Made by a program: the position numbers and the translations under genes. From NCBI GenBank assembly GCA_030647125.1, contig JAUSKC010000013.1, positions 2,249-66,248 of the forward strand: a stretch of 64,000 nucleotides of DNA, given 5' to 3'. Shown one piece after another: positions 16,246 to 43,072 of this stretch; the stretch's first letter is position 1, and each line of letters begins with the position of its first letter. This stretch comes from Nanobdellota archaeon. Its GTDB lineage: Archaea; Nanobdellota; Nanobdellia; Pacearchaeales; GW2011-AR1. The notes beneath the pieces are model-generated. The model had not been told where the DNA came from. It worked only from the letters and a program-made list of their open reading frames with translations, and did no database searches.

Positions 16246-16475
16246 CTTACTCTTTTCTCAACCCCGTACAATCTTGTTAAATATTCTAATCCTATTTTAT
16301 ATTCTTCTGAACCAGAATCAAATCTTTTTTCTAATCTGGTTTTATGGTGTTTAAATCTAGCAACACGATCAGAACTTTCCCTCAAAAAATCCATTGAGGG
16401 GAAGAGTCTACTATCACAGAAATGATCTCTCAATCCTTCAGACATTCCCCTATAAAGCTCTTCTAATTCTACCAT
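16242..16475 (-). CDS. hypothetical protein
   Basis: 77-aa ORF translationally coupled between gatC-like and Nudix genes. Confidence 0.25.
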   Translation of the reverse strand: MVELEELYRGMSEGLRDHFCDSRLFPSMDFLRESSDRVARFKHHKTRLEKRFDSGSEEYKIGLEYLTRLYGVEKRVR

Positions 16476-16732
16476 CCTTTCTTCTCCGCAATTATAAAGT
16501 CCTTATTTTTATTAGGCGCATTTGAAAACATAATTTCTCTGTCAATAGGAACTTTTTCAGCCGAACCTTCTTTTCTCTCGCCGTTTCCTCGTTCAATCAT
16601 AGGTTCTTCTACTCTATCAAGGCCTAATTTCTCCAATTTTGAAGAAAAAGAATCCATAATCTTCTTTGATTCTTTTTTTATCTGTTCTTTTTCAGGTTCA
16701 GAAACCTTCTTCCATAAAAACCCTTCAGTCAT
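16469..16732 (-). CDS. gatC: probable Glu/Asp-tRNA amidotransferase subunit C
   Basis: C-terminal ...ERKEGSAEKVPIDREIMFSNAPNKNKDFIIAEK resembles the GatC R.D...REE.L.NAP...F.VP tail; same operon direction as gatA. Confidence 0.5.
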   Translation of the reverse strand: MTEGFLWKKVSEPEKEQIKKESKKIMDSFSSKLEKLGLDRVEEPMIERGNGERKEGSAEKVPIDREIMFSNAPNKNKDFIIAEKKGW

Positions 16733-16734
16733 AA

Positions 16735-17628
16735 TTAACCAATAAACCTCATACTTTTAATTTTTCCTATTCTATCATCAACTTCAACAATCGCCGCCTT
16801 TCCTTTTTCTCCATCTCCTGGATTGATAATAGGAACTCCATATAATTTTTTCATCCCTCTGTATTCATGCATATGTCCGCAAAAAACAGAAACAGGTTTA
16901 TATTTCTTAATCGCTTCTGAATAAAATCTGACACCAGCACTCTCTCTATCCATTGGATTATTTTTATCTTTAATTATATCAAAAATTCCTTTCGGTGGAT
17001 AATGAAAAACAAAAATCTTAGGCAGTTTTTTATCTGTCTTCTTTAGCAAACTAAAAAACTTTGTCCTCATTTTAAGATGTCTTTTATACCTTTTCATAAT
17101 ATCTTCACGTTCACTTTTAAATGTCTTTTTCTTAAAAAACGCATCAATATCCATATACCCGCCAAACCCAATAATATCAAAACCACCAAATTCTTTTTTA
17201 CCATAATTAATTATATTAACATTTTTCAATTTCTTCAGAAACAAGGCGTTCTTTTCTTTTCTTTTCTCTTTAAAATAAGGGGTGCTGTACCAATCATCAT
17301 CTGTATTGCCAAACACAATATAAGTTGGCTTATTTAACGAATCCAAAGTTTTCAAAACTTTCTTTGTCATTTCAAAATCTTTTTTTAATAAATATTTTAA
17401 CTTCTTCTTTCCAAAGAACTCTTCTGGAGAAATTCTTTCATCCCCTCGCTTTAATCGCCTGAACAAATCTAGGATATACGGCCGCCATTCGTTAATTCCC
17501 CCATAATCTCCAACACCAACAATTAAATCAAAATCTTCTTTTTCCAACTTACTTTTCAGCTTCGAAGGAAAAACTCCTTGAAAATCTCCACAAACCAAAA
17601 TCCTAACCATAAATAAAAAAGTTATCAC
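16735..17628 (-). CDS. calcineurin-like metallophosphoesterase
   Basis: ILVCGDFQG, GDYGG, GNTDD, HMHEY motifs. Confidence 0.65.
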   Translation of the reverse strand: MITFLFMVRILVCGDFQGVFPSKLKSKLEKEDFDLIVGVGDYGGINEWRPYILDLFRRLKRGDERISPEEFFGKKKLKYLLKKDFEMTKKVLKTLDSLNKPTYIVFGNTDDDWYSTPYFKEKRKEKNALFLKKLKNVNIINYGKKEFGGFDIIGFGGYMDIDAFFKKKTFKSEREDIMKRYKRHLKMRTKFFSLLKKTDKKLPKIFVFHYPPKGIFDIIKDKNNPMDRESAGVRFYSEAIKKYKPVSVFCGHMHEYRGMKKLYGVPIINPGDGEKGKAAIVEVDDRIGKIKSMRFIG

Positions 17629-17700
17629 AAACTTAAAAACCTAACTACTATCTAAAAACATTAAAAATTATTTAAAAAATAAAAATAAAAATAAATTTAT

Positions 17701-17802
17701 TTACCAATCTGCTTCGTCATCGCTTGAGTCATCTTCATCATCGTCATCTTCATCTTCATCTTCTGACTCATCAATCTTTTTGTCTTCTTCACTCTTAGGC
17801 AT
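17701..17802 (-). CDS. small highly acidic peptide (33 aa)
   Basis: ATG after TAGGAG; MPKSEEDKKIDESEDEDEDDDDEDDSSDDEADW; below ORF-track cutoff. Confidence 0.3.
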   Translation of the reverse strand: MPKSEEDKKIDESEDEDEDDDDEDDSSDDEADW

Positions 17803-17891
17803 TTTACAACTCCTATTTTAATTAAAACCTACTAATCCAAATTGTTTTTAAACGTTTCTATAATCTTTTCAATAACAAAAACATTTAAGAA

Positions 17892-19280
17892 CTATTTCTT
17901 CGAACTCTTGGGCTTTGAATTCTTTTTCACAATCTCTATATGCGTTTCTTTCAGTTGAATCGGCTCAACTTCCGAAGGTGAACCGTCCATTGGATTTTGC
18001 GCGGCCTTATTTTTTGGAAATGCAATTACTTCTCTTATATCATTAAATCCTAACATCAATGCAACCAATCTGTCAAAACCTAAACCCATTCCGCCGTGAA
18101 CAGGCCCACCATATTCGTAAGCGTCAAGCAAAAAACCAAATTTCTTTCGTGCGGACTCTTTGCTCATCCCTATAATTTTCATAACTTTCTCTTGTAATTC
18201 AGGATTGTTAATTCGAATGCTTCCCGAACCAAGTTCAGTTCCATTAAGTACAAGGTCAAACAAATCCCCCAAAACTTTCCCTGGTTCTTTTTCTAAATAT
18301 TTTATATGTTCTTTTTTAGGCGAAGTGAAAATGTGATGTTCCGGCTCCCATTTTTTTTCATCTTTATTATAAGAAAACAATGGAAAATCAACAACCCAGC
18401 AAAATGCAAATTCTTTTGGATTGCTTTTGTCTTTTCTCAAGTCTGGCTTATCCGTTCCGTATTTTTTCTTTGCTTCTTCATGAGTTAGAATTTTAAAATC
18501 ACTAAGTTGAATTCCTAAAATCTTTTTAAAAATATGTTTATACAATCCCTCAACAAATCCTAAAATATCTTTCTGTTCAACAAAACTCATTTCCAAATCC
18601 ATTTGCGTATGTTCTGGCTGTCTGTCTGCCCTCAAATCTTCATCTCGCAAACAGCGCGCGAACTGATAATATTTGTCAAACCCCGCAATCATTAAAATTT
18701 GTTTATACAACTGCGGCGATTGAGGCAATGCATAAAACTTTCCTTCATTAACACGAGAAGGAACAATATAATCACGTGCGCCTTCCGGCGTCGGCTTAAC
18801 AAGCAAAGGCGTTTCAATTTCCAAGAAATCGTTCTCAATAAAATACTCTCTCGCTGCTTGAGCGACTTTAGCTCTGAATGCCAAATTTCTTTGCATCTCC
18901 GGCCTTCTTAAATCCAAGAAACGATATTTCATTCTTATATCATCCCCTGCAACTTCATTCTCATTAATTTTTATAGGTGGAACTTTCGCCTCGTTGATAA
19001 TCTCAATTTTCTCGGCAAAAACTTCAATTTCTCCCGTATGCAATTCCTTATTTTCAGTCCCTGGCTTTCTATTCTTAACTTCCCCAGAAACAGAAACAAC
19101 AAATTCATTCCTTAATCCGTGCTCACCCTTGAAAACAATCTGCATTTTCCCATACCTGTCACGCAAATCAATAAAACTAATTTTTCCATGCTCGCGAATA
19201 GTATCAACCCATCCACAAAGTTTAACTTTCTTCCCAACATCTTTTCGTGTCAGTTCTCCACAAGTATGCGTCCTTAACAT
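17892..19280 (-). CDS. aspS: aspartyl-tRNA synthetase (archaeal type)
   Basis: N-terminal OB anticodon-binding domain, class II motifs (FRDE..., GGMGLGFDRLVALM); ends with a genuine TAG stop. Confidence 0.9.
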   Translation of the reverse strand: MLRTHTCGELTRKDVGKKVKLCGWVDTIREHGKISFIDLRDRYGKMQIVFKGEHGLRNEFVVSVSGEVKNRKPGTENKELHTGEIEVFAEKIEIINEAKVPPIKINENEVAGDDIRMKYRFLDLRRPEMQRNLAFRAKVAQAAREYFIENDFLEIETPLLVKPTPEGARDYIVPSRVNEGKFYALPQSPQLYKQILMIAGFDKYYQFARCLRDEDLRADRQPEHTQMDLEMSFVEQKDILGFVEGLYKHIFKKILGIQLSDFKILTHEEAKKKYGTDKPDLRKDKSNPKEFAFCWVVDFPLFSYNKDEKKWEPEHHIFTSPKKEHIKYLEKEPGKVLGDLFDLVLNGTELGSGSIRINNPELQEKVMKIIGMSKESARKKFGFLLDAYEYGGPVHGGMGLGFDRLVALMLGFNDIREVIAFPKNKAAQNPMDGSPSEVEPIQLKETHIEIVKKNSKPKSSKK

Positions 19281-19613
19281 AATAAATCAATAAACAAGTA
19301 ATTTATAAATTTAATTAGAATCTAAAGAAGAATCAAGCCCTTTCTGTTTCATCCTTTGTTCCCTCATTAACTTTCGCCCGGCCTCAATATATCCCCTTGG
19401 AGTATAAAAAATAATTGTCTCAGTTTCCTGCCGTGGCAAACTTTCTCTTTCACCCTGTTTAACATTACTATAATCCTTTCTAAAAAGCCGCACAAATCTA
19501 CTTAAATAATCCATAAAAACAATAATCATTTATTATTCTTAAAGATTTATATTTATTTTAAAATAGATAATAAAAAACATAAAAAGATTTAAACATAAAA
19601 GTTCTACAAAGTT

Positions 19614-20006
19614 ATGGTATATAGTTTGGAACTTCTTTCTACAGCAGTAAATGAAGGTTATATGCCAGATATAGAGGGGTTAGCTAAAAAAATTGATGAA
19701 CCAAAATTATCTATAGTGGGTTTAGATGAAGTATTAAAATTCATAGCAAATTATGAACCAATGTGGCATGAGGTGGGCAATCAAGATCTTGAAAGACAAT
19801 TAGAAACATTCAAAGGAAAACAACCATTATATTTAGATAGTGAACATACTCAAAGAAATCCTAATTTAAATCATTCGGATTATTTGTTTGTGTTTAAAGA
19901 GTTCATGAAAACATGGGCAGCACGTAAAAACAAAGGATCTCCAGAAGAGAATTGGTATCAAATGCAGGAAGAATTGGCAGATCTAATTTTTGAGAGTTAT
20001 AGATAA
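19614..20006 (+). CDS. hypothetical protein
   Basis: 130-aa ORF in its own intergenic slot. Confidence 0.3.
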   Translation: MVYSLELLSTAVNEGYMPDIEGLAKKIDEPKLSIVGLDEVLKFIANYEPMWHEVGNQDLERQLETFKGKQPLYLDSEHTQRNPNLNHSDYLFVFKEFMKTWAARKNKGSPEENWYQMQEELADLIFESYR

Positions 20007-20010
20007 ATAA

Positions 20011-21519
20011 TTATTTCAATAACTTTTCAATAATCTGCATCGCATCTTTCCCAGAAATCTTGCCTTTAAACTCTTTCATCACCAAACCCATATAAGCATT
20101 AGCATTCAATCCTGGCTTGCTCTTTATTATCTTATGAATTTTCTCTTCAACATATTCAGTATTAATCTTCTAAATTTTTAATGCATCCTCCAAACTTTCA
20201 CCAGAAACAATTTTCTCAAAAACATTCCGAACATCGCTTTCCTCAAGTTTCCCTTCTCTAACTTTCTCCAAGACATCAGAAATAACTTCTTTACCAAATT
20301 TCTTTTCAACATCGAACTCGTTTAAATTTTCCCTCACAGCAATTTCCGTCGGAAGAACAAGCAAAACCTTGGCAACAAAATTTGCATTAGGATAAATCTT
20401 CATCAACTCTCCAAACTCTTTAACTTGATTTCTCTTGAAAAGCAATTTAATCATTTCCTCATTAAGTCCTTCCCGTCTTAAGTCCTCTTCAATTTCCACT
20501 TTTAATTTAGGCAACGTCTTCTTTGCTTCATTAATCAAATCCCTATGTATCTTTAACAAAGGTAAATCCGTTTCAGGATACATACGAGCAGCCCCGGGCA
20601 TTGGCCTTAAAAATTCACTCGTTCCGTCTGGCAAAGCGCGTCGCACTTCAGAAACAACTTTCATTTTTCCAAGAATTAATCTTTCTTGTCTTTCAATTTC
20701 TTTGTTAACAGTAGTAATCATCATTGAAGGATCTTGAAAACCTTTTATTTCAATTCGTGCGCCTTTTGAAATAGAAACATTAACATCTTGTCTTATAGTT
20801 CCAATTCCTCTTTTAACTTTACACGAACGTAAAATCTCTCCAATTTTTAGCGCAGCTTCACGAACTTGCGCAGCACTTTTCAAATCCGGCGCGGTAGCAA
20901 TTTCAACTAAAGGAATTCCCAATCTATCTAACCTATAACGCACTTCTTTCTCATTTTCAAAGATCTTTCGCGCAGAGTCCTCTTCCAAACAAATTGTGTC
21001 AATTCTAACTTTTCCTTCAGACGTTTCAATATAACCATCACGAGCAATTAAAACCGTCCTTTGAAATCCGGAAGTGTTAGAACCATCAACAACTGTCTTT
21101 CTCATAATTTGTGTCAATGTCTGTATCTCACAATTCAAAAGCAAAGCAATTTGCAACGCAATTTTGAGCGCCTCTTCATTAATTTGATACGGCGGCTCTT
21201 CATCTAATTCAACCAGCGACGTCGTTCCAGAATGAACTTCATAAACAAACTCTTTATCTAAAGAAACTTGATAGAGTGCAGCTTCATCAACTTCACCAGA
21301 TTCTCCAGCAACGGCATGAAGTTTTCTCCTTACAAGATAATTCGGCTCATCACTTCTCAAAATGGAAGGCGCACGAGAAAATAATTTATGAGTGTCAAGT
21401 TGCTGATGAATTTCTAGCCCTGCTTTAAAACCGAGATTTTTATAATCGAGGTTTTTTGCTGAAAAATCTTTTGATTTTTCTTGCTTAAAACCTAATTTAG
21501 TATAATCTTCTTTATCCAT
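20011..21519 (-). CDS. gatE: Glu-tRNA(Gln) amidotransferase subunit E with in-frame TAG at 20170..20172 (C-terminal tail continues to 20011)
   Basis: N-terminal LGFKAGLEIHQQLDTHKLF matches GatE; after ...EDALKI-TAG the same frame continues KINTEYVEEKIHKIIKSKPGLNANAYMGLVMKEFKGKISGKDAMQIIEKLLK, i.e. the conserved GatB/YqeY-type tail. Confidence 0.8.
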
Positions 21520-21550
21520 AATAAAAAGAAAATAAAAGAATTAATAAAAG

Positions 21551-22129
21551 TTACTTATGAGCATCTAACCCTAAATAAGTAACCAATCCGCCATTCTCTC
21601 CTCTAAAAAACTGTACATCATCAAAAAGTAAATGCATAGTAGATAATCCTAATCCTTGATTTTCAGGATAAGGTCGGGATTTATCAGAAAATTTATAAAA
21701 ACTTGTAATTAAAGGATAAGTCGATTGTCTAAACCTTAATATATACGGAACAAAGTCCTGATTAATTACTCCTCCTTCATCTCCAATAAGAAATAATGCA
21801 GAATCTTCAGAAATTTTGGAAGCAAGGAGAATTTTCTTAGTTTTATCTTTGTGATTTCCATGTTGGTATGCATTCCTTACAGCTTCATGAACTCCTGCAA
21901 GAATCTTTCGTGGAAATCTCTGATCTCTAAGCCCATCTCCAAATTGATAACTATGTGAATATAATCCTTTTTCAGAAGAGGGATAAAAAGATTTATCCTC
22001 AAAATCAGGTGAGATAACTATAGGTGGAATTTTAAGTTGTGATAAAATAACATCTTTAGTAAACATTTCTCTAACTAAAGAATTCCTAAAATCTAAATTC
22101 AAAAGTTCATTATCATGAATATGTCTCAT
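21551..22129 (-). CDS. stand-alone GHKL/HATPase_c-like ATP-binding protein
   Basis: N-box HEAVRNAYQHGN, G1 IGDEGGV, G2 NQGLGLSTM in order. Confidence 0.5.
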   Translation of the reverse strand: MRHIHDNELLNLDFRNSLVREMFTKDVILSQLKIPPIVISPDFEDKSFYPSSEKGLYSHSYQFGDGLRDQRFPRKILAGVHEAVRNAYQHGNHKDKTKKILLASKISEDSALFLIGDEGGVINQDFVPYILRFRQSTYPLITSFYKFSDKSRPYPENQGLGLSTMHLLFDDVQFFRGENGGLVTYLGLDAHK

Positions 22130-22218
22130 AATAAAATAACTATTTCACATCTTAAAAACCTTTCTAAAGTAACCCCTTATAAGTTACAACCAAACACGAA
22201 GAATCAAAGAATCAAAAA

Positions 22219-23502
22219 TCACCCTTCAAGCATTTTATTAAACTCATGAGCAAAGTTATGAAGCATTTTCTCTTTTACAACTTCTTTGCTTTTTGCCCAC
22301 TCACTATGCCCTAAAATCCATCCTAATTTTACCAAGGCCGCTTCACTCAACATGTCTTCAAGGTAAATTATTCCTGTCTCCAAAAGTTCTCTTCCATTAC
22401 TATATACTAAAGGATCAACTCGGCCGTTAATGCACTGTGATGTCGCACAAACCACAATTTTTTTCTGAACTTCTTTTAACTTTTTAGTCCATCCATGTCT
22501 TGCTCTTGATGTAGGCGCGTGACCAAGACCAGACATTTCAAGAACTAAGCCTTTGTAACCATTTTTAACATAATAATCTAGGACGTTGGCCTCTTGTCCA
22601 GGATAAATTTTCAAAAGCCCAACTTTCTCTTCAAATTTATTATCAACCTTAACTTTGCTATTATTTCTCCTATTAAAATTACTCATAATTTCAATTCCAT
22701 CTTGAGTAACTTTAGCAAATGGTTTCCCGTTAACAACTTTAAAGGCGTCCCTTCTTGAAGTATGCAACTTTCTTACTTTAGTTCCAGGCATAGCATAACA
22801 AAATTCATCACTTTCATTTGCATGTCCAACAAGCATAACTTCAGCAATCTCAGAAGTTGCAGCAACCGCAGCGCATACTAAATTTAAATTAGCGTCGCTG
22901 CTAGCACGATCAATTGACCTTTGTGAATAAGTTAATACAACTGGCTTGTTTAACTTCCCTAAGAAAAAACTCAAGGCCGCGGAAGTATAATGCAAAAAGT
23001 CAGTCCCGTGAGTAATAATAACTCCTTGAATATTTGTATCATTTAATAATTCAGAAACAACTTTAGCAATTTTTTGCCAGTCCTTGTAATCCATGTCTTC
23101 TGAGGCCTTCATAAACGGTCGCTCCAAACGAAGAACGTTCACTTTATCAAAGATTCCTGGATAATATTTAAATAAACTTTCAGGTGTGTCAAGCCAATCA
23201 ACTCCTCCTTTCTTCGGATTTAAGCGAGCTGCAATTGTTCCTCCAGTAATTACCATAGCAATATTTGGCTTTCCACTTGACTTTTTCAATTCAACTTTTT
23301 CTTCAGCATCGCGCGCTTTTTCAACAAGTTTAATCTCCAAAATTTCTTTTCTCGGAAAGCCAATATTATACCCATTTCCAAGCTTAAGCAAAACAATATT
23401 CTTGTCAGACTCGGGCGATTCAATCAAAGTCCCTTCATAAATTTCTTTAACGAAGTGAATTTCAACTTCGTCCCCTGCCTTAATTCCAGAATCAATTTTC
23501 AT
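22219..23502 (-). CDS. gatD: Glu-tRNA(Gln) amidotransferase subunit D (asparaginase-like)
   Basis: Asparaginase-type motifs VITGGTIA, VIITHGTD; start moved to internal MKIDSGIKAGDEV (cat at 23500..23502) since the upstream 12 codons are hydrophobic junk. Confidence 0.85.
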   Translation of the reverse strand: MKIDSGIKAGDEVEIHFVKEIYEGTLIESPESDKNIVLLKLGNGYNIGFPRKEILEIKLVEKARDAEEKVELKKSSGKPNIAMVITGGTIAARLNPKKGGVDWLDTPESLFKYYPGIFDKVNVLRLERPFMKASEDMDYKDWQKIAKVVSELLNDTNIQGVIITHGTDFLHYTSAALSFFLGKLNKPVVLTYSQRSIDRASSDANLNLVCAAVAATSEIAEVMLVGHANESDEFCYAMPGTKVRKLHTSRRDAFKVVNGKPFAKVTQDGIEIMSNFNRRNNSKVKVDNKFEEKVGLLKIYPGQEANVLDYYVKNGYKGLVLEMSGLGHAPTSRARHGWTKKLKEVQKKIVVCATSQCINGRVDPLVYSNGRELLETGIIYLEDMLSEAALVKLGWILGHSEWAKSKEVVKEKMLHNFAHEFNKMLEG

Positions 23503-23642
23503 ATCCAAAACAAAAATTCCAACTATAAAAAGTTTCATCTTTAATGTTTCTTCAATATTTCTTCAATGCCAAATCAGAATAGTTACTCCGTGTAAGTAAC
23601 TACAATAGAAACATTTATAAATGCCTAAAACGGGAAATAAAC

Positions 23643-23987
23643 ATGACAAACATAGGAAAAGGAATCACAGGTGGATTAGTATTAGCTTTGCTATCAGTTG
23701 GAACATTCTCTTTAGTAAAAGGAACTGAAATGGCTTCAGAAAGACAAGCAAGATCAGAATTAAGAGAAGTAATTGACACTCCAGAGGAAAGGGTAAGATT
23801 AGCAACAATGTTGGAAAATCAACCAGAAACATGGTATGTCTTAAACAAATTAAAAAAACAATATCCTTCTCTAAAAAATTCTGACCAGAATAGAATAGTT
23901 TACGAATTGGACCAATTAAGAAATTATGATTTAGGAAAAATGAATCAAGATGACTACAATGTTCATGTAGCTGCAAGAGATTTTTAA
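23643..23987 (+). CDS. hypothetical protein with N-terminal signal/anchor
   Basis: 114-aa ORF, N-terminal hydrophobic segment. Confidence 0.3.
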   Translation: MTNIGKGITGGLVLALLSVGTFSLVKGTEMASERQARSELREVIDTPEERVRLATMLENQPETWYVLNKLKKQYPSLKNSDQNRIVYELDQLRNYDLGKMNQDDYNVHVAARDF

Positions 23988-24028
23988 TCCCTAAAAACCT
24001 TAATAAATCCTTTTTATCTTTCTAATTA

Positions 24029-25384
24029 ATGGTTAAGATTGGTTTGGAAATTCACGGTTATCTTGAAACAAAAGAAAAATTATTCTGTTCGTGTGTTGCC
24101 GAGCACGGAGCAAAATTCTCAAAACCAAATACAAACATATGTCCAATATGTACCGGACAACCCGGAAGCAAACCAATGTTACCAAACGCGGCAGCAATAG
24201 ACAAAGCAATTCAAATTGCATTAATTTTAAACTGCAAAATAAATGAAAAATTAATCTGGCAAAGAAAACATTACTCTTGGCCTGATCTGCCAAAAGGTTA
24301 TCAAAATACTTTATCCGGTCCTCATGCATTCCCTATAGGTATTAACGGAAAATTTGAAGGAATAAAAATTACTGAAGTTCATCTTGAAGAAGACCCTGCT
24401 GCTTGGAATCCAAAAACTGGAGAAATCGATTACAATCGTTCCGGCTCTCCATTAATAGAAATTGTTACAGAACCTGACTTCACATCCTCATCACAAGTTG
24501 TTGAATGGTTGATAACTCTAAAATCAACTTTGTCTTACATAAAAGCTTTGGACCGTTCTTCCGGACTAAAAGCAGATGTAAACGTTTCCATAAGCGGCGG
24601 AGCAAGAGTTGAAATAAAGAATGTAAATTCTATTTCAAACATAAAAACCGCTATAGAGCATGAACTCGCGCGTCAAGAACGTTCTCTTCCAAAAAAACAA
24701 GAAACACGCGCATTTAATGAGTTAGACAACACTACGACCCACATGCGTTTTAAAGAAGAAGCAGAGGATTATCGTTTCATTTCAGATCCCGACTTGCCTA
24801 TAATAAAAATAGATTCTAAAACAATAAAAAGAATAAAAGAAAATCTTCCAGAGACACCAAAAGAAAAATTAAACAAATTAATAAAAAAATACAAGATACC
24901 AAAGGACTCAACAGAGGTTTTGACAAAGAATTTGGACATGGTTGAATTATTTGAAATCGTCTCCTCCCGTATTTCACCACAACTGGCCTTAAATTGGATA
25001 ACCATAGAACTTCAAAGGGTTTTAAATTACAATAAGAAACTTTTGGATGAAGTTGAAATTATCCCCGAACATATTATAGAACTTTTAGAGTTAGTTCAAA
25101 CTAAGAAAATAACTGAATTAAAAGCAAAAGAAATCTTGAATAAGTTCGTCCCAAAATCCTTTTCACCACTTTCAGAAGCAACAAAAAACGCTACAATTTC
25201 AGATGAGAAAGAAATAGAAAAGATTGCATTAAAAGTAATTTCCGAAAACAAAAAAGCTGTTAATGATTACAAAGCAGGCGAAGAAAAAGCAATTAATTTC
25301 TTAATAGGCCAAGTCATGCGCATCTCAAACAAGCGCGCGGACTTTGCAACAGCAAAAAGAATTCTAGAAAAGAACTTAAAATAA
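24029..25384 (+). CDS. gatB: Asp/Glu-tRNA amidotransferase subunit B
   Basis: IGLEIHGYLETKEKLFCSC start; complete C-terminal helical tail ...INFLIGQVMRISNKRADFATAKRILEKNLK. Confidence 0.85.
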   Translation: MVKIGLEIHGYLETKEKLFCSCVAEHGAKFSKPNTNICPICTGQPGSKPMLPNAAAIDKAIQIALILNCKINEKLIWQRKHYSWPDLPKGYQNTLSGPHAFPIGINGKFEGIKITEVHLEEDPAAWNPKTGEIDYNRSGSPLIEIVTEPDFTSSSQVVEWLITLKSTLSYIKALDRSSGLKADVNVSISGGARVEIKNVNSISNIKTAIEHELARQERSLPKKQETRAFNELDNTTTHMRFKEEAEDYRFISDPDLPIIKIDSKTIKRIKENLPETPKEKLNKLIKKYKIPKDSTEVLTKNLDMVELFEIVSSRISPQLALNWITIELQRVLNYNKKLLDEVEIIPEHIIELLELVQTKKITELKAKEILNKFVPKSFSPLSEATKNATISDEKEIEKIALKVISENKKAVNDYKAGEEKAINFLIGQVMRISNKRADFATAKRILEKNLK

Positions 25385-26533
25385 TTAAACCAACTTTAAA
25401 ATATTCAATAATTCATAAACAACCCCCGAAACAAAAATCAATCCTATAATCCATAAAATTATAGAAGGAATTTTAAGTTCATACTCTGGTTTTCTATTCC
25501 CTTTTTTGCGCGCACGCGCAAACATTAGCAAAATCAAAATCCCAATAGAACCCCCGGAAATTACTCCTCCAATAGATAAAATCTTAATAAAAGAATCAAA
25601 TCCTATAAAATTCAAAAAGATAAAAAGAACCAAAGGCAAAAGTGTAACATAAAGCCACGACTTTTTCCAACTCTCTCCGTAATCCAATCCAAACATATCT
25701 TTCAAGGCCACAGACAAAGCAACATATGAAGTCCCCATAGTTACAATTCCAAGAAGAACAACAAACTTCCCTAATGAAAAAGTGGATATTTCACTTACAT
25801 CATTTCCATAAACTCCGACGATAACAAAAGAAAAGACTGTATAAACAATCATTGCAATAACCAAACCTAATATTAAAGATCTCTTTACTAATCTTTCACT
25901 GCCTTTCAAATGCCTTTCAACTTCAGGCATGGCAGTAAAACCAAGATAAGAAAAAAGAACAACCCCAAAAGGAACAAAAAAATTGTTAAAATAAATTGGC
26001 TTAAAATTATCAAAATCAACTCTCGGAAGATTAATCAAAGAAACTATCACAATCAATCCTAAAAATACTATTGAGCCATAATCCAAGAATTTTTTCATTT
26101 CCCTGACTCCATGAGAAATTATAAAAAACATAAAAACCCAAAGTCCTATTCCGAAAAACAAAACATACTTTACTTCCCCAAAGAAAAGAAAGCTTAATGA
26201 TTCGCTGACTCCAAAAAGATAAGCCAAAACCGCGGAATAAACTTCAAAAAGCAAAGCATAAAACATAAAGATTTTCCCTTTGCTTCCCAAATAAATGCTT
26301 GCATAGCCAGTAAGCTGATGCTCTCCTTTTGTTCTCAAAGAAACTTCACCAAGCATTAAAAACAAAAACAAAACCATTAAACCAACAAAAAGAATATAAA
26401 ACATTCCTATAGCAAAGCCAGATTTAACAATTACTGAAGGAATTCCAAGGAAACCTGCACCAATCACAGTTCCAATCATAATTGCTACCGCTGTAAATGT
26501 CTTTTTGAAATCACTCTTTTGTTCCATCTTCAT
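25385..26533 (-). CDS. polytopic transporter (amino-acid/polyamine permease-like)
   Basis: ~11 hydrophobic helices, AIMIGTVIGAGFLGIP motif; start trimmed to MKMEQ (cat at 26531..26533) because the annotated N-terminus overlaps a tRNA gene. Confidence 0.5.
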   Translation of the reverse strand: MKMEQKSDFKKTFTAVAIMIGTVIGAGFLGIPSVIVKSGFAIGMFYILFVGLMVLFLFLMLGEVSLRTKGEHQLTGYASIYLGSKGKIFMFYALLFEVYSAVLAYLFGVSESLSFLFFGEVKYVLFFGIGLWVFMFFIISHGVREMKKFLDYGSIVFLGLIVIVSLINLPRVDFDNFKPIYFNNFFVPFGVVLFSYLGFTAMPEVERHLKGSERLVKRSLILGLVIAMIVYTVFSFVIVGVYGNDVSEISTFSLGKFVVLLGIVTMGTSYVALSVALKDMFGLDYGESWKKSWLYVTLLPLVLFIFLNFIGFDSFIKILSIGGVISGGSIGILILLMFARARKKGNRKPEYELKIPSIILWIIGLIFVSGVVYELLNILKLV

Positions 26534-26535
26534 AA

Positions 26536-26607
26536 CGAGCCCGGGAGGAATCGAACCCCCATCATCAGGGCCGAAACCTGACATTCTATCCGTTAAACTA
26601 CGGGCCC
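26536..26607 (-). tRNA. tRNA-Arg(TCG)
   Basis: 72-nt cloverleaf on minus strand: acceptor GGGCCCG/CGGGCTC, anticodon stem TCAGG/CCTGA, loop TTTCGGC, T-loop TTCGATT. Confidence 0.8.
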
Positions 26608-26807
26608 TTGCAAAAACCAAAAATCTAAACTTTTTAATGTTTGAGGTTTAAGATATTAATAAAATAAACTTGGTCTTTGTAAATATTATCTTTAATAAAA
26701 AAAGAGGTGATAATTATCATTGGGATGAATAATTGGGGAGTGGAAGGGGGGATAAGTAAAACAAAATTATTCACATAATTTTTATACCCATATTTCTTCA
26801 TTAATAA

Positions 26808-29919: not shown

Positions 29920-30363
29920 CTAATTCAAACATTTAGGAAGTTTAACTTTATTTCTTTTCCTTCTTGTGATAAAACTATAAATTAAATCTGTAAAACATTC
30001 AACTTCTCCATCTTCCAAACTAACTCTTTTGAACCTTTTATTTGATTCTTCAACAGATTTTACTCTTTGTGAAAATCCTTTACTCAAATCTTTACCTGAA
30101 AAATAAGGTTTTTTATCTTTTTCAAAAGGAATAATCATCACTCTTCCTTCTAATGTTTCAATAACATCTCCCCTACCTAAACGAATTCCGTTATCATTAC
30201 TTATTATTACTGCAGCAAGATCGTAAATATTATACATAGAAAAAATTGTACCGTCCTCGCATTCAAAATAATAAGAATAAGGATGCCCATCTTCTTCATC
30301 GACAGGAAGTTTCTTATACAGAACGTAAGTGTCTCGTCTCACAAATGCCCAACAAAAAAACAC
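29920..30363 (-). CDS. hypothetical protein
   Basis: 147-aa ORF upstream of the DHH gene on the same strand. Confidence 0.3.
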   Translation of the reverse strand: MFFCWAFVRRDTYVLYKKLPVDEEDGHPYSYYFECEDGTIFSMYNIYDLAAVIISNDNGIRLGRGDVIETLEGRVMIIPFEKDKKPYFSGKDLSKGFSQRVKSVEESNKRFKRVSLEDGEVECFTDLIYSFITRRKRNKVKLPKCLN

Positions 30364-30393
30364 TATATATAGATTATTATAAAAAAGTAGATA

Positions 30394-31437
30394 TCAAATC
30401 CCTTTTTCAATTCTCTCTCTAAATAATTCTAAATCCTCCAAGCGCACTTTCGCCCCGACGGCATCTTCATGCCCTCCCCCAGTTGCGCCTTCTAATCCAT
30501 CAATCGCTTTAAGAATAACCTTCTTAACGTTTTTCCCTCGAACAGAAATATTTGCTTTAATTCCTGTAACATAAACAACAATAACTATTTTTTCTGGAAA
30601 CAAGTACATTAATTCATTTGACAAATCAGAACTTATGCTCAAATCCCCTCCATACTGGAAAAACAAAATCTTATTTTCTTTATTGTAAACCTCTTTTGCT
30701 TTTTCAATTAATTTTCTATAACGCACCTCAATTTGGTCGAACTTGCTATGCATAGAATAATTTTTATTATTTGATTCTAGAACATCTCCCGGACTTCGCG
30801 CTTTCATAAGATATTTTATCATTGAAACAACATTTGTCGTGCTGTCTTTCAAGCCAAAATTAAAAATTCGCGCAACTCTTCCAATTTCAGTGGTGTAAAA
30901 AACTTCAAAAGCATTTTTTGTCTTAACTCCCAATTCAGGGAAGTTCTTTAAAAAATCCTTGTAAAAGGAAGGCATATAACTGTCAGAAATGCACCCTACA
31001 ACCGCAATCCACAAGTCCTCTTTTCTTGTTTTTTTAACAACTTGCCAGCACAAAGCCGTCGTCGGTTCAGAACTCTTTTTCTTGTTCAAAACTGGATTAT
31101 AATAATGCACAAATTCAGGAACAACAGAATCAACATCATGATGATCAATCCACACAACAGGGATATTAACTTTTTCAACTTCATCAAAAAATTCCTTTGA
31201 CACAAGCGGCTTATCAAGAATAAAAATATAATCAGCTTTTAATTCCACAACTCTCCTAAAATAATCCTTAGACATTTCCGGGAACGAACGAACTGGAACT
31301 CCCTTGCCTCTTCCTAAAAACCTTTGCAGCAGCAAAAAAGCGCTTAGTCCATCCGCATCATTGTCAAAAAAGAAAACTGGATTTTGCGCTTTGGCCAAAT
31401 GCCCGTTAATTTCATCAACTTGTTTTTTCGTTAACAT
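30394..31437 (-). CDS. stand-alone DHH-DHHA1 phosphoesterase (NrnA/Pde2-like)
   Basis: DHH motifs FFFDNDADGLSA and WIDHHDV; DHHA1 GGGH motif ATGGGHEDAVGAKV. Confidence 0.75.
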   Translation of the reverse strand: MLTKKQVDEINGHLAKAQNPVFFFDNDADGLSAFLLLQRFLGRGKGVPVRSFPEMSKDYFRRVVELKADYIFILDKPLVSKEFFDEVEKVNIPVVWIDHHDVDSVVPEFVHYYNPVLNKKKSSEPTTALCWQVVKKTRKEDLWIAVVGCISDSYMPSFYKDFLKNFPELGVKTKNAFEVFYTTEIGRVARIFNFGLKDSTTNVVSMIKYLMKARSPGDVLESNNKNYSMHSKFDQIEVRYRKLIEKAKEVYNKENKILFFQYGGDLSISSDLSNELMYLFPEKIVIVVYVTGIKANISVRGKNVKKVILKAIDGLEGATGGGHEDAVGAKVRLEDLELFRERIEKGI

Positions 31438-32540
31438 TATATCTTCTTACCAACCATAATCTTTTCTTTCAAGCTGTTAATCTCTTTATTGAAAAATTCA
31501 ACCATCTCTTCGCTTCCAAAGATTTCCAAAAGCTCGTCGTTATCAGCTGCTAGAGTTCTGTCAAGCGTTTTGAACTTTGAAATTAAAGCGGTTGTATATC
31601 GCTCAAGCAAATTTGTTCTCCCCAAGATTCTCAAGCCCGAAGGACTGACTGATTCGTCATGCAGCTCTTCAAAAAGCATTCGTGAAATATTATTACTCTC
31701 GAGCAGAAAATCAAAATTAAATTTATCTAAAGTATTCGCCTTATTATTCCATTCATTTCCAAAATAATCTTTTAAAAGAATTTCCTCCTCTTTTCCTAAA
31801 TTTCCTGTCAATTCTTTAAGTCGCATACTTACAATCATCCCTTCCTTTCCAAGTTCAATCAAATATCTTTTTACAATTTCAGAAATTCTTTTTATAATTT
31901 CAAGTCGCTGCAAAACATTCGAAACATCTTCTATAGTTACCAACCCATTAATTTCAAGAATGTTAAAATTAGACATTAAATCATTAAAAGTCTCCCTTTG
32001 TTTTTCCAGAATTTGCAACGTCTCAGCCGCTCTTCTTAAAATTTCAGAGCTGTGATCAAGTTCATATTTCATATCACTATAATACAAAGAAATTTTATTT
32101 TTTCTTTCAGAGACAGCAATTACAATTGTTTTTGCTTTCTTCGCGGTCCTTTCAGCCGCCTTATGCCGCGTTCCCGTCTCTCTCGTCGGAATGTCAACTC
32201 CAGGGAAAAGCAAGGTATTTCCAAATAAAATTCTTTTTCCGTCATTGCTTAAAATTATTGCCCCATCCATCTTGCACAATTCAACCAACTTTTGCGCGCT
32301 GAATTTTGAATTTATTTTAAAACCCCCATCTGCAAGATCAAGAACATTTCCATTGTCAAAGACAATCAGCGCACCCATTCTTGCTCTTAACAAATCATCC
32401 AACCCCGTCCTTAATGAAGTTCCTGGCGCGAACATCTTAAGCACGTCGACAAAGTCCTTTTCTTTTTCAAAATTCTTAAGAGGATTCTCTGTAACAACAA
32501 TCTCCTGCACCTCTTTAATATCAGAATTATTTTCTTCCAT
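31437..32540 (-). CDS. disA: DisA-like diadenylate cyclase (DAC domain + C-terminal helical region)
   Basis: DAC motifs DGAIILSNDG and GTRHKAAERTA with TIVIAVSE; 1-nt overlap with the DHH gene. Confidence 0.7.
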   Translation of the reverse strand: MEENNSDIKEVQEIVVTENPLKNFEKEKDFVDVLKMFAPGTSLRTGLDDLLRARMGALIVFDNGNVLDLADGGFKINSKFSAQKLVELCKMDGAIILSNDGKRILFGNTLLFPGVDIPTRETGTRHKAAERTAKKAKTIVIAVSERKNKISLYYSDMKYELDHSSEILRRAAETLQILEKQRETFNDLMSNFNILEINGLVTIEDVSNVLQRLEIIKRISEIVKRYLIELGKEGMIVSMRLKELTGNLGKEEEILLKDYFGNEWNNKANTLDKFNFDFLLESNNISRMLFEELHDESVSPSGLRILGRTNLLERYTTALISKFKTLDRTLAADNDELLEIFGSEEMVEFFNKEINSLKEKIMVGKKI

Positions 32541-32615
32541 AATAAATTCAATAGTCCCTTATATTTAAATTTTATTAAACTTAAACCTTAAAAACGCATT
32601 CTAACTAAAAAAATC

Positions 32616-40009: not shown

Positions 40010-43000
40010 TCATTCCAAATAAATCCCCGGCTTGCCCGGCTTAACTTTTTTGCTTTTTCCGTCCGGATCATATTTATCTTTATCATTAACAGCATAAACT
40101 TTTATATCAAGACCTGTTCGTTTTTTCAACTCATCAACGCTATCAACAAAATTCTTCTTTTCGTTAGGCAAAACATAAACCCAACATTTTGAAACTTCTT
40201 TTCCTTCCCGTTCTTTTATAATTTTAACAACGTGATTTATATCTTCAACAAGCTTTGCAACATCTTGCTCTTGCTTTTCCAAACTCTCATTAATCTTCGC
40301 TTCTTCAACTTTAGGCCATTCAGATGAAGAAATCAGACCAACACCTCCTATTTTCTCCCACATTTCTTCAGCTATGTGCGGGCAAAAAAGAGACAAAAGT
40401 TTCAAACCCTTTTCCAAAACTAATCTATCAGTTTCCAGAGGCAAAGAATTAAACAATTCCCTGACTTTTATAATTGCTAAGTTATATTTGAAATTTTCAA
40501 TCTGGTTCGTCATTTCTTTAATAATCTTATTCAATTTGCTTTCAATTTTAGCGTCTGATTTCTTAACAATCTTAACATTTTGAAAATAATCATAAACTTT
40601 ATTCAAGAATTTGAAGCTTCCAACAAGAACATTCTCATCCCAAAGAGTATCATTTTCAGGAGAAGCCAAACTCATTAAAGCCAAACGCAAAGAGTCCGCG
40701 CCATACTTCTTAATAATATCCAAAGGATTAATCACATTACCTAACGACTTTGACATCTTCTGCCCATCAGCGCCATGCAAAAGCCCTTGATTAAACAATT
40801 TAATAAACGGCTCATCAATTTCAGGAATCAAATCTAAATCCCTCAAGGCCTTTGTAAAAAAACGCGCGTAAATCAAATGCATCGTCGCATGTTCCGCGCC
40901 TCCAATATATTGATCAACAGGCATCCAGTATTTTACTTTATCAATTTCAAAAGGTTTTTTTGAATTTTCCGAGTCCAGATATCTCAAATAATACCAACTC
41001 GAATCAAAGAAAGTATCCATCGTGTCCGTCTCTCGTTTGGCTTTTCCATTACATGAAGGACATTTTACATTAATCCATTTTTCATTTGTTTTCAAAGGAT
41101 TTCCTTTTCCAAATTTAACTTTTTCAGGAAGAACAATAGGCAAGTCACTTTCTTTAATAGGAATAATTCCACACTTATCACAATAAACAACTGGAATAGG
41201 AGTTCCCCAATAACGCTGACGTGAAACCAACCAATCTCTTAATTTAAAATTAACAACCTTGCGTCCTAATTTTTTCTTTATTAAAAATTTAGTAATTTCT
41301 TCTTTAGCTTTTTCACTTTCCACTTCATCAAATTCATCCGAATTAATTAACCATCCTTCTCCAGTATAAGCTTTCGACTCTTTTGTAAAATCAATTTCTC
41401 CTTCCCTTGGCTGAATCACTGCCTTAATTTCAATATTGTATTTTCTTGCAAACAAATAATCCCTTTGGTCGTGAGCAGGCACAGCCATAACCATTCCACT
41501 CCCATAATCAGCGACGACAAAATTGCCGGCATAAACCGGAACTTTTTTATTATTTACAGGGTTTACAGCATAACTTCCTGTAAAGACACCTTCTTTGTCA
41601 AGTTCTTCAAGTTGTTTTTCAGAAACGCCTTTTAATTTTTTCAAGAATTTTTCTACTTCTTTCTTTTGTTTGTTAGAAACTAATTCCATAAGTCGCGGAT
41701 GCTGCGCTGAAACAACCATAAAAGTCACTCCGTAAATAGTATCTGGCCTTGTCGTAAATATAGACCACTTTTCATTTCCAATAATTTCATTTAAAAGTTC
41801 AGGAAATTCTCCTGTTCCCATATCATATATAGTATAATGCCCATGATTTTTTAATTCAATAATTTCGCCGCCCAAAGAATCATGAAAGATCTTAACGCTT
41901 TTCTTACCATCGGCTTCCTCATTATTTGCAGTAAAAATAATTACTTCACCAACTCTATCTTTAATTCCCAAGTCAATATTATAATCATAAAAATCTTTTG
42001 GAGCATTACCAGATTTAGCAATTTTCCAAGGTGCGACTAAAATTAGTTTTTTAATTTTCTTTTTAGTATCACCAAGCCATCTTACTAAAAATGCACAGCC
42101 GCAACTATGTCCAATTAAAACAGAATTCTCATCTATTTTATTTTTTTCGAATTCTTTCTTCCAATTATAATAATCAGCTTTCCAGGCCTCGGGCATTAAA
42201 GGAGAAAAAACCTTAATCTTTCTTTCCTCAAGTTTCTTTTTAATCCAAGGAATCCAATGTTTATCATAAGTTCTTTTTTCTTGAGAATACTCCGCTTTTT
42301 CAGCAGACGGACAACCATGAACAATCACAACATTAGAAAGTTTATTTGAATTTTCAATCTCAAACAAAATCTCCGTCCCTTCCGAACGTCCAATCCAATT
42401 CTTCTGCATCAACTTAATTCTTTCAGGCCAATATAACTTGTCAACCTTATCCAAAAGCTCGTCAGCATAATTTGTCGTTTTGATAAACCATTGTTCAAGT
42501 TGCTTGATTTCAACAGGTGTTTCAGGATGTCTCCAGCAACAACCACCATGAACTTGCTCATTCGCTAAAACCGTCTCACATTTACCACACCAATTAACCG
42601 GCGACTTTTTTCTATAAATTAAACCTTTTTCATAAAGTTTAAGAAAAAAATATTGATTCCATTTATAATATTCCGGCTTTGACGTCACAATCATTTTACT
42701 CCAATCGTAACTCAATCCTAACTTATGCTGTTGATTTACAAAATTTTTTATAGAATTTTCAGTGTACTTTCTAGGATGTTCCCCTGCTTTTATCGCCGCA
42801 TTTTCAGCAGGCAATCCAAAAGCATCGTAACCCATTGGATAAAGAACATTCATCCCTTGCATTCTCTTGAAGCGCGCATAAATATCCCCTATAGTATAAT
42901 TCAAAGCATGGCCCATATGCAGTCCAGCTGCCGATGGATACGGAAACATTTCAAGAACATAAAACTTCTTTTTCTTTTTCGTGCCTGCGGCGTCCGGGGA

Positions 43001-43072
43001 TACTTCAAAGACCTTCTTTTTTTCCCACTTACTCTGCCATTTTGTTTCTATCTTTTTAAAATCATAAACCAT
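40010..43072 (-). CDS. leuS: leucyl-tRNA synthetase (archaeal type) with inserted RBBP9/YdeN-like serine-hydrolase domain
   Basis: HMGH, KMSKS-type (KMSKSLGN), CP1 editing FTTRPDTIYGVTFMV; a ~180-aa alpha/beta-hydrolase module (VVIVHGCPSA...HWIPWIKKKLEE...IGHSCGCAF...LVAPW...HGHY) sits between GRSEGTEI and FTTRPDT. Confidence 0.9.
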   Translation of the reverse strand: MVYDFKKIETKWQSKWEKKKVFEVSPDAAGTKKKKKFYVLEMFPYPSAAGLHMGHALNYTIGDIYARFKRMQGMNVLYPMGYDAFGLPAENAAIKAGEHPRKYTENSIKNFVNQQHKLGLSYDWSKMIVTSKPEYYKWNQYFFLKLYEKGLIYRKKSPVNWCGKCETVLANEQVHGGCCWRHPETPVEIKQLEQWFIKTTNYADELLDKVDKLYWPERIKLMQKNWIGRSEGTEILFEIENSNKLSNVVIVHGCPSAEKAEYSQEKRTYDKHWIPWIKKKLEERKIKVFSPLMPEAWKADYYNWKKEFEKNKIDENSVLIGHSCGCAFLVRWLGDTKKKIKKLILVAPWKIAKSGNAPKDFYDYNIDLGIKDRVGEVIIFTANNEEADGKKSVKIFHDSLGGEIIELKNHGHYTIYDMGTGEFPELLNEIIGNEKWSIFTTRPDTIYGVTFMVVSAQHPRLMELVSNKQKKEVEKFLKKLKGVSEKQLEELDKEGVFTGSYAVNPVNNKKVPVYAGNFVVADYGSGMVMAVPAHDQRDYLFARKYNIEIKAVIQPREGEIDFTKESKAYTGEGWLINSDEFDEVESEKAKEEITKFLIKKKLGRKVVNFKLRDWLVSRQRYWGTPIPVVYCDKCGIIPIKESDLPIVLPEKVKFGKGNPLKTNEKWINVKCPSCNGKAKRETDTMDTFFDSSWYYLRYLDSENSKKPFEIDKVKYWMPVDQYIGGAEHATMHLIYARFFTKALRDLDLIPEIDEPFIKLFNQGLLHGADGQKMSKSLGNVINPLDIIKKYGADSLRLALMSLASPENDTLWDENVLVGSFKFLNKVYDYFQNVKIVKKSDAKIESKLNKIIKEMTNQIENFKYNLAIIKVRELFNSLPLETDRLVLEKGLKLLSLFCPHIAEEMWEKIGGVGLISSSEWPKVEEAKINESLEKQEQDVAKLVEDINHVVKIIKEREGKEVSKCWVYVLPNEKKNFVDSVDELKKRTGLDIKVYAVNDKDKYDPDGKSKKVKPGKPGIYLE

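Follow-up and report, generated by a model that had tools for sequence, protein, structure and literature searches.

A predicted DisA-type diadenylate cyclase paired with a compact RecJ-side DHH/DHHA1 phosphoesterase in Pacearchaeota and Woesearchaeota

What is the function of a gene for a DisA-like diadenylate cyclase in an archaeon of the DPANN group, and what does it mean that its stop codon overlaps the start codon of a gene for a DHH/DHHA1 phosphoesterase? This question is raised by a stretch of 64,000 nucleotides (nt), here called the window, from contig JAUSKC010000013.1 of a Nanobdellota archaeon (assembly GCA_030647125.1). The disA gene (32540..31437, minus strand) is an open reading frame (ORF) of 367 amino acids and is followed on the same strand by a DHH/DHHA1 ORF of 347 amino acids (31437..30394, minus), here called mini-RecJ. 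The final A of the disA TAA (31439..31437) is also the first base of the DHH ATG (31437..31435), a one-base overlap (ATATAATGTTA) that gives TAATG at 31435..31439 of the minus strand and a stop/start junction reading AAGATATAATGTTA. An earlier interpretation made from the DNA letters without database searches, the sequence-only reading, had described both ORFs with these positions, strand and overlap, and every motif that it quoted is present (DGAIIL, GTRHKAA, TIVIAVSE, FFFDNDADG, IDHHDV and GGGH). It had taken the pair for a self-contained module of cyclic di-AMP (c-di-AMP) synthesis and breakdown, whereas the analysis reported here points to a bacterial-type DisA associated with a distinct family of RecJ/GAN-related enzymes. 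The window has a GC content of about 33%, as in an AT-rich archaeon, and carries the archaeal markers MCM, TFB, TFE-alpha, tRNA-splicing endonuclease, archaeal-type prolyl-tRNA synthetase (ProRS), GatD/E and deoxyhypusine synthase (DHS). Contigs nearly identical or related to it are labelled Pacearchaeota, Woesearchaeota or Nanoarchaeota, and homologues of DisA and of the DHH protein number thousands for each.

The product of the upstream gene is recognized as DisA by several comparisons. The NCBIfam DisA equivalog NF010009 matches it at 333.4 bits (cut-off 201), covering profile positions 4-354 of 357, whereas models of other cyclases give 40 (CdaA), 30 (CdaS) and 28 bits (CdaM), and the DacZ model NF041371 gives 22.6 bits (cut-off 430). 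The DAC motifs noticed by eye were confirmed by Pfam PF02457 (85.6 bits, E 2.5e-24), and the DisA-linker domain PF10635 was found at 104 bits (E 7.8e-30, cut-off 25). DisA of Thermotoga maritima (PDB 3c1y) aligns at E 8e-58 (residues 28-360), and a profile made from 54 archaeal DisA homologues retrieves DisA of T. maritima, Mycobacterium smegmatis and Mycobacterium tuberculosis from PDB at E values of 1e-68 to 6e-79. The best Foldseek matches of the AlphaFold (AF2) model (pLDDT 81.5) are DisA of M. tuberculosis and T. maritima, at E ~1e-27 and 34-36% identity over 340-350 aligned columns. On these profiles and folds the gene is assigned to the full-length DisA-type diadenylate cyclases and not to the DacZ type, in agreement with the sequence-only reading. 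The predicted protein begins with a variable, disordered extension of about 28 residues. The DAC catalytic domain (32073..32408, minus, residues 45-156; PF02457) contains the DGA motif D92-G93-A94 within MDGAIIL (32259..32267, minus), R125-H126-K127 within GTRHKAA (32160..32168, minus) and the catalytic Ser, S144, inside TIVIAVSE. Behind it are found the DisA-linker helical domain (31674..32060, minus, residues 161-289; PF10635), with long helices at 166-197, 203-245 and 248-273 in the model, and a C-terminal helical domain (31440..31673, minus, residues 290-367) at the place of the helix-hairpin-helix (HhH) DNA-binding domain of DisA.

Departures from bacterial DisA are found in the ATP-binding motif and in the C-terminal domain. 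Across 87 archaeal DisA sequences, D92, A94, T122, G123, R125, H126 and S144 never vary and G93 is kept in 99%, while position 127 is K in 75 sequences (86%), R in 7, and M, I or T in 5 (6%). The RHR motif, present in four of four bacterial DisA sequences of PDB, is replaced by RHK in the window protein; changing RHR to AAA in M. tuberculosis DisA abolished both ATP binding and activity (PMC3328451). Because the catalytic residues are kept, the change from R to K is conservative and the literature tested the triple AAA mutant only, the archaeal enzyme is probably active and most likely still makes c-di-AMP from two ATP. The C-terminal extension, described earlier as DisA-like, bears out this description in one respect, as residues 290-367 still align to DisA domain 3, but by profile its HhH signature is degenerate. 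The domain scores 14.4 bits on HHH_2 (E 0.044, cut-off 27), while the same region of T. maritima DisA, as given by its alignment to the window protein, scores 32.4 bits on HHH, 30.4 on HHH_2 and 27.4 on HHH_5. The bacterial GIG aligns with non-conserved positions of the archaeal DisA profile, and no GhG hairpin is kept. The domain as a whole has stayed moderately conserved, with a mean column conservation of 0.53 against 0.73 in DAC.

The product of the downstream gene possesses the two domains expected from its motifs, DHHA1 at 31.4 bits (cut-off 25.9) and DHH at 27.6 bits, marginally below the cut-off of 28.1. The DHH catalytic domain (31033..31365, minus, residues 25-135; PF01368) includes motif I, DNDADG within FFFDNDADG (31348..31365, minus), motif II (D75) and motif III, DHH within IDHHDV (31138..31146, minus); motif IV (D152) is located slightly outside the domain range. 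The DHHA1 domain (30403..30654, minus, residues 262-345; PF02272) holds S298-x-R300 and the GGGH motif (30469..30480, minus). Among 105 diverse members, D27, D29, G30, D75, D98, H99, H100, G321, G322 and H323 are invariant, and S298 and R300 are kept in at least 90%. The active site is predicted to be intact, that is, its catalytic motifs are complete.

These features are shared across the whole superfamily, and the affiliation of mini-RecJ was examined with family models. In NCBIfam the window protein matches only recJ (E 1.8e-13; 49.6 bits against an equivalog cut-off of 396.9) and RecJ_archaeal (E 1.8e-8; 33.7 against 360), the RecJ models scanned being the archaeal RecJ/GAN models NF053576 and NF053575 and the bacterial TIGR00644; no match to the NrnA model NF053633 was obtained at E<=0.1. 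When the 105 members were scanned one by one, RecJ_archaeal was matched by 105 of 105 (below threshold), recJ by 102 and NrnA by 6, weakly. Searches of PDB with the protein or a shallow profile returned 7bhi, 5x4h and 8y30, of which only archaeal RecJ-Cdc45 (7bhi) and Pyrococcus furiosus RecJ (PfuRecJ, 5x4h) are significant. An exhaustive search of 1.84 billion cluster representatives gave 922 matches at E<=1e-3 and 198 at E<=1e-30; the full-length matches are nearly uniform in length (~340-350 amino acids), and their alignments span the whole protein even at 28-30% identity. The profile of this family finds in PDB RecJ-Cdc45 (E 4.6e-19), MjaRecJ2 (4.4e-18), PfuRecJ (1e-16), GAN (1.8e-15) and Staphylococcus aureus RecJ (3e-9), followed by the PAP phosphatase of Methanothermococcus thermolithotrophicus (7e-8), NrnA (2e-6), TM1595 (2e-4) and Rv2837c (0.09).

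The predicted structure of mini-RecJ (AlphaFold AF2; pLDDT 94.8, pTM 0.91) agrees with the profiles. Its Foldseek matches at 1e-17 to 6e-15 are RecJ-Cdc45, MjaRecJ2, S. aureus RecJ, GAN, PfuRecJ and the Thermus thermophilus RecJ core, among them 7bjq (1e-17, TMq 0.72), 8y30 (1.2e-16, TMq 0.70) and 1ir6 (5.8e-15, TMt 0.62), and the matches to NrnA, Pde2 and TM1595 stand at ~1e-10 with TM 0.4-0.5. The model has the RecJ-type core of DHH domain, long helix and DHHA1 domain, the helix comprising 23 residues (227-249). The accessory domains of larger relatives, namely the CID/GINS-binding insertion of GAN and the OB fold of bacterial RecJ, are absent from its 347 amino acids (430-760 in those proteins), and the Foldseek alignments leave about 100 target residues unmatched. 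Profiles and model together describe a distinct compact family of about 345 amino acids, previously undefined, on the RecJ/GAN side of the DHHA1 superfamily. Profiles, member scans and Foldseek thus group the protein with RecJ/GAN, the outcome that the sequence-only reading had itself named as counting against its assignment to NrnA/Pde2, and that assignment is not supported here.

Membership of this family gives no pointer to hydrolysis of pApA or c-di-AMP. In Deinococcus radiodurans, RecJ (DrRecJ) is inactive on c-di-AMP and its NrnA-like paralogue is active (PMC11229311). The linker of NrnA is short and flexible, while RecJ and an archaeal DHH/DHHA1 pApase have a long interdomain helix, and this pApase cuts neither c-di-AMP nor pApA (PMC8268124).

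Conservation of the pair was analysed in two samples, one centred on the DHH gene (58 loci from species-representative genomes) and one centred on DisA (80 metagenome loci, among them some near-duplicates, whose DisA is 41-98% identical to that of the window). The DHH gene belongs to a housekeeping block with the order TFE > rhomboid > SpoIIM > DHS > [DisA >] DHH > ProRS < HtrA <. Among DHH-centred loci with enough upstream sequence, DisA adjoins DHH in 24, the window included, and there is no DisA within 5 kb in 25. It lies directly upstream in 23 of the 24, and downstream on the opposite strand in the remaining one (L019). The flanks are otherwise identical with and without DisA (L052 against L053, L043 against L045). 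Seen from DisA, the linkage is much stricter: DHH is found directly downstream on the same strand in 64 of the 80 loci, at 0.4-2.5 kb in 3 and nowhere in 6, and 7 loci are too short to judge, so that in about 90% of the DisA loci of Pacearchaeota and Woesearchaeota DHH follows DisA directly, often overlapping it. A relative close to one of the exceptions shows the order DisA-DHH-ProRS again. Spacing was determined for 89 pairs, of which 46 share 1, 4 or 7 nt and another 13 are separated by 0-15 nt (59 of 89 in all). The pair is thus the rule in these lineages, and to call it unusual, as was done before, overstates the case.

The two genes have diverged together. Pairwise identities of DisA and DHH are correlated (r = 0.87, Mantel p = 0.001, 71 pairs) and mean divergence of the two proteins is alike (~50% and 52% identity), which argues for co-inheritance as a unit. 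In a neighbour-joining DHH tree the presence of DisA changes state at least 12 times, and these changes, together with the co-divergence, are best fitted by repeated loss of DisA. Remnants of DisA upstream of DHH were sought in 28 DisA-less loci, with one weak match of 39 amino acids (L015, E 6e-4). In about half of the related genomes DHH occupies the same syntenic slot with no DisA at the locus, and its catalytic and most conserved residues are the same in genomes with and without DisA. As it is kept intact where DisA is missing from the locus, DHH appears to belong to the core genes of the lineage and to have a job independent of DisA rather than that of a dedicated c-di-AMP degrader, and the idea of a self-contained c-di-AMP module is weakened accordingly. 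In the opposite direction, the near-obligate and often overlapping linkage of DisA to one gene has persisted through deep divergence, which points to a genuine functional connection and probably to a physical one. About 10 of the 58 DHH-centred loci, and also L139 and L140, carry a gene of the archaeal Nre family of DNA-repair factors (Nre_N + Nre_C) divergently upstream of DHH or DisA-DHH (for example L022 3299..4546, L027 2333..3565 and L139 4576..5781); a DNA-repair neighbourhood is possible.

Expression signals around the pair are in keeping with a single transcript. The region between disA and the divergent DHS gene (32541..32615, minus) contains a TATA-like box, TTTAAATATA (32560..32569, minus), about 25 nt 5' of the DisA ATG, which from the archaeal TATA consensus is likely the promoter of a leaderless or short-leader bicistronic mRNA. 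A T6 tract (30381..30386, minus) lies 8 nt past the DHH stop codon and, in view of the oligo-T terminators known in archaea, is likely the transcription termination signal of the operon. No bacterial-type hairpin terminator appeared in a sigma-70/terminator scan, whose models are bacterial and uninformative for an archaeon. A TATA-like element was identified 5' of DisA in 55 of 82 loci. Directly 5' of DHH, TATA-like elements are found in 15 of 83 loci with DisA and 18 of 32 without, and Shine-Dalgarno-like purine tracts in 27 of 83 and 3 of 32, a contrast that matches a bicistronic mRNA begun upstream of disA but is confounded, as coding sequence is compared with intergenic sequence in an AT-rich genome. 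Archaeal DisA proteins end in a conserved G-K-x-I motif (31437..31448, minus, in the window, and in relatives), whose codons, in many DisA-positive loci, form a GGNAAR tract rich in purines 8-17 nt 5' of the DHH ATG, for example GGAAAGGTGAT; this tract may double as the Shine-Dalgarno site of the internal cistron.

Bacterial disA is classically operonic with radA, and RadA binds and regulates DisA. By analogy with radA-disA, we tentatively favour a partnership of DisA with a nuclease as the meaning of the archaeal pair, since overlapping, tight coupling is typical of interacting partners. The locus, from a DPANN archaeon of Pacearchaeota/Woesearchaeota type, would be an operon of two genes, whose first cistron would specify a bacterial-type DisA making c-di-AMP and whose second, translationally coupled cistron would specify a compact, catalytically active phosphoesterase of RecJ/GAN lineage, a core gene with its own function. 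The two proteins would form a physically or functionally coupled pair, in which a nucleic-acid-processing partner gives or receives a signal on the status of DNA or RNA, as RadA does beside DisA. The substrates of mini-RecJ would be single-stranded ends with a 5' phosphate or short oligonucleotides, and DisA with its decayed HhH domain would couple their processing to c-di-AMP output, either relying on mini-RecJ for input or modulating it; clearance of linear 5'-pApA may be a side activity. Cyclase activity, nuclease substrate, physical interaction and direction of regulation are what we infer here. Several observations weigh against the partnership. The promoter contrast is confounded as described, RHK stands in place of a motif whose mutation to AAA kills the M. 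tuberculosis enzyme, and no sharp DisA-specific positions were found in DHH between genomes with and without DisA, the differences seen being confounded by clade sampling. The PAP phosphatase of M. thermolithotrophicus (8a8k) is a near structural match of mini-RecJ (E 1.6e-14, TMt 0.71), and a protein with neither OB fold nor CID for long single-stranded DNA or GINS is better suited to small substrates, pApA included; ancestry on the RecJ side lowers the prior for c-di-AMP cleavage, yet leaves the substrate unfixed. A more specific form of the partnership, which we consider unlikely, holds that a bacterially acquired DisA was rewired from RadA to a RecJ-family nuclease and serves a c-di-AMP checkpoint of DNA integrity or replication stress. 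Delegation of end sensing to mini-RecJ would then explain the decay of the HhH domain, and if mini-RecJ were also the sole Cdc45/GAN homologue, a second messenger would be tied directly to the archaeal replisome.

The main rival of the partnership, somewhat doubtful in our judgement, makes mini-RecJ a hydrolase of the c-di-AMP pathway that converts c-di-AMP and/or 5'-pApA to AMP beside a housekeeping role as nanoRNase or pAp-phosphatase; by sharing one transcript with its degrader, an acquired and potentially toxic cyclase would never be made alone. Such a double role is known from mycobacterial CnpB/NrnA, and it would fit the retention of DHH in genomes without DisA, although full conservation of DHH where DisA is absent also speaks against a dedicated phosphodiesterase. 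To our knowledge, genes for bacterial cyclases and phosphodiesterases are not usually operonic, which counts against a degrader, while the near absence of DisA loci without DHH directly downstream counts for one. The DHH/DHHA1 architecture has all its catalytic motifs, its minimal size without domains holding single-stranded DNA suits small substrates, and a 5'-phosphorylated dinucleotide would be natural for a 5'-3' exonuclease of RecJ type. Stand-alone DHH/DHHA1 proteins are moreover the known bacterial c-di-AMP/pApA hydrolases, and DHH-DHHA1 proteins have been named as archaeal candidates (PMC10249747). Against this, profile and fold searches favour RecJ/GAN over NrnA/Pde2/GdpP by about 10 orders of magnitude, true RecJ leaves c-di-AMP uncut (PMC11229311), and the long-linker archaeal DHH/DHHA1 enzyme that the model resembles acts on neither c-di-AMP nor pApA (PMC8268124).

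Two further explanations dispense with part of the proposed function. That disA merely hitch-hikes on expression, having been inserted after horizontal acquisition behind the promoter of a constitutive core gene and ahead of its coding sequence, inherited with DHH ever since and easily lost, with no interaction of the products, is in our view quite improbable. It agrees with the conserved housekeeping block around DHH whether or not DisA is present (L052 against L053, L043 against L045), with the at least 12 changes of DisA presence and with the lack of DisA-specific residues in DHH. Under neutrality, however, the linkage should have been lost in more than the ~10% of cases seen, and the pair holds down to ~41% DisA identity though loci are rearranged on both sides of it (intact for example in L041, L045 and L053), with overlapping stop and start codons kept in half of the pairs. 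Least probable of all, and very unlikely, is an archaeal DisA that has ceased to be a cyclase and regulates mini-RecJ as a nucleotide-binding or scaffold subunit. The K at the third RHR position in 86% of sequences and the non-basic residues in 6%, read beside the dead AAA mutant of M. tuberculosis (PMC3328451), would fit such a protein, as would the degenerate HhH signature; yet the (near-)invariance of D92, G93, A94, T122, G123, R125, H126 and S144 in 87 sequences indicates selection for catalysis, the exchange of R for K is far milder than the only mutant studied, and the whole protein scores above the DisA equivalog threshold.

The genes themselves are not new, as both protein families are known and the NCBI pipeline already labels the proteins 'DNA integrity scanning diadenylate cyclase DisA [Candidatus Pacearchaeota archaeon]' and 'DHH family phosphoesterase'. 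In the literature searched, no paper linking DisA or diadenylate cyclase with DPANN, Woesearchaeota or Pacearchaeota was found, though a prior description in wider DAC surveys is possible, nor was any relevant work on RecJ in Woesearchaeota. A review of second messengers in archaea, published in 2023, states that the c-di-AMP degraders of archaea are unknown, and mentions neither DPANN nor archaeal DisA (PMC10249747). The sequence-only reading had confined characterized archaeal cyclases to haloarchaea, which is too narrow, since activity of the DacY/CdaZ class has been reported outside haloarchaea in work cited in PMC6741144. Experimental knowledge of c-di-AMP signalling in archaea nevertheless comes only from cyclases of DacZ/CdaZ type, and the present comparison suggests that a large DPANN lineage has a genuine DisA, consistently paired with one RecJ-side DHH/DHHA1 family. 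If the partnership is true, it would be a new pairing of DisA with a nuclease, parallel to DisA-RadA; if mini-RecJ is a hydrolase after all, it would be the first archaeal c-di-AMP/pApA hydrolase, and from an unexpected branch of the superfamily. The pair is thus a testable candidate for a link between c-di-AMP and nucleic-acid processing or breakdown. Repeated loss of DisA with DHH kept would also indicate that a second-messenger enzyme can be added to, and removed from, a minimal genome.

Within the window and in the relatives alike, the neighbours of disA are the DHH gene downstream and the divergent DHS gene upstream, and a radA/sms operon context was found neither at this locus nor at those of the relatives. 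No second DHH/RecJ paralogue and no second DAC are encoded within the 64-kb window, the only RNA elements detected in it are tRNAs, with no c-di-AMP riboswitch, and a role in defence was considered and set aside, as PADLOC gave no match for DisA, the DHH protein or orf147. The last of these (29920..30363, minus; 147 amino acids, GTG start) lies just 3' of the DHH gene beyond the T-tract. It was considered as a third member of the operon and rejected, since Pfam, NCBIfam and PADLOC give no match and none of 58 related loci has a homologue; the ORF is an orphan specific to its lineage or else not a gene. DHS is repeatedly flanked by genes for an Orn/Arg-decarboxylase-like protein (cluster c10) and an AdoMet decarboxylase (c12), for example in L001, L004, L009, L016 and L058, and some loci contain a second DHS-like gene of ~30% identity. 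This polyamine/hypusine cluster around DHS is compact, and its polyamine genes are unrelated to DisA.

Other features of the window were noticed in passing. Leucyl-tRNA synthetase (40010..43072, minus, 1020 amino acids) contains a match to the serine hydrolase/alpha-beta hydrolase family PF06821 (E 1.2e-12, residues 270-426), an insertion directly preceding the editing domain (residues 433-597) and unusual for this enzyme. An ORF of 2039 amino acids (54391..60510, minus), whose sole Pfam match is a C-terminal SLT lytic transglycosylase domain (residues 1843-1885), is directly preceded on the same strand, with a 4-nt overlap, by an ORF of 626 amino acids without Pfam match (60507..62387, minus); in an episymbiotic DPANN archaeon, the two may represent a giant protein of the surface or for interaction with the host. 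Genes for what seem to be both amidotransferase systems lie near one another (14525..25384), encoding a GatA-like amidase (14525..15844), a GatB_N-only, GatE-like protein (20170..21519), GatD (22219..23538) and GatB (24029..25384), with an AspRS/AsnRS-class gene of non-discriminating type at 17892..19280. A tRNA gene (26536..26607, minus) overlaps the annotated TTG start region of an amino-acid permease ORF of 411 amino acids (25385..26620), and the true permease start is therefore probably further downstream.

Compared with known systems, the window DisA shares with bacterial DisA (T. maritima TM0200/3c1y, Bacillus subtilis DisA, M. tuberculosis Rv3586/9y4s) the three-part architecture of DAC, helical linker and C-terminal helical domain, a similar length, 34-36% identity, the DGA motif and the catalytic Ser. 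It differs in its archaeal host, its RHK, the lost HhH signature (14 against 27-32 bits) and the N-terminal extension of about 28 residues, and its operon partner is a RecJ-like DHH enzyme in place of RadA/Sms. With archaeal DacZ/CdaZ it has in common the DAC domain and the archaeal host, but it lacks their pyruvate-kinase-like N-terminal domain.

Mini-RecJ finds its best profile and fold matches in archaeal RecJ proteins, namely RecJ-Cdc45 of Methanothermobacter thermautotrophicus (7bhi/7bjq), RecJ2 of Methanocaldococcus jannaschii (6tvv/7ykv), RecJ of P. furiosus (5x4h) and GAN of Thermococcus kodakarensis (5ght), with which it shares the DxDxDG motif I, DHH, GGGH and the long interdomain helix. 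At 347 amino acids it falls short of them (430-500) by about 100 residues, has no CID-like insertion and belongs to a family of uniform length. NrnA, Pde2, CnpB (Rv2837c) and TM1595 resemble it in the DHH+DHHA1 layout, in their size of 310-340 amino acids and in intact metal-binding and GGGH motifs, which are superfamily-wide and do not discriminate in favour of NrnA, and like them it could plausibly work beside a c-di-AMP synthase, while sequence similarity to this group is weak and the linker of mini-RecJ is a long rigid helix. The archaeal PAP phosphatases of DHH type (Pyrococcus yayanosii pApase and M. thermolithotrophicus PAPP, 8a8k) have the same minimal DHH/DHHA1 form with a long linker helix. 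The P. yayanosii enzyme, however, is strictly specific for pAp, carries GGGK in place of GGGH and is encoded in clusters for sulfate assimilation (PMC8268124), whereas mini-RecJ has GGGH and no sulfate-assimilation neighbours. As in bacterial radA-disA, a DisA is found in a tight operon with a predicted nucleic-acid-processing enzyme and the linkage is kept over long distances; the partner there is a RecA-like helicase, and here it would be a DHH/DHHA1 phosphoesterase.

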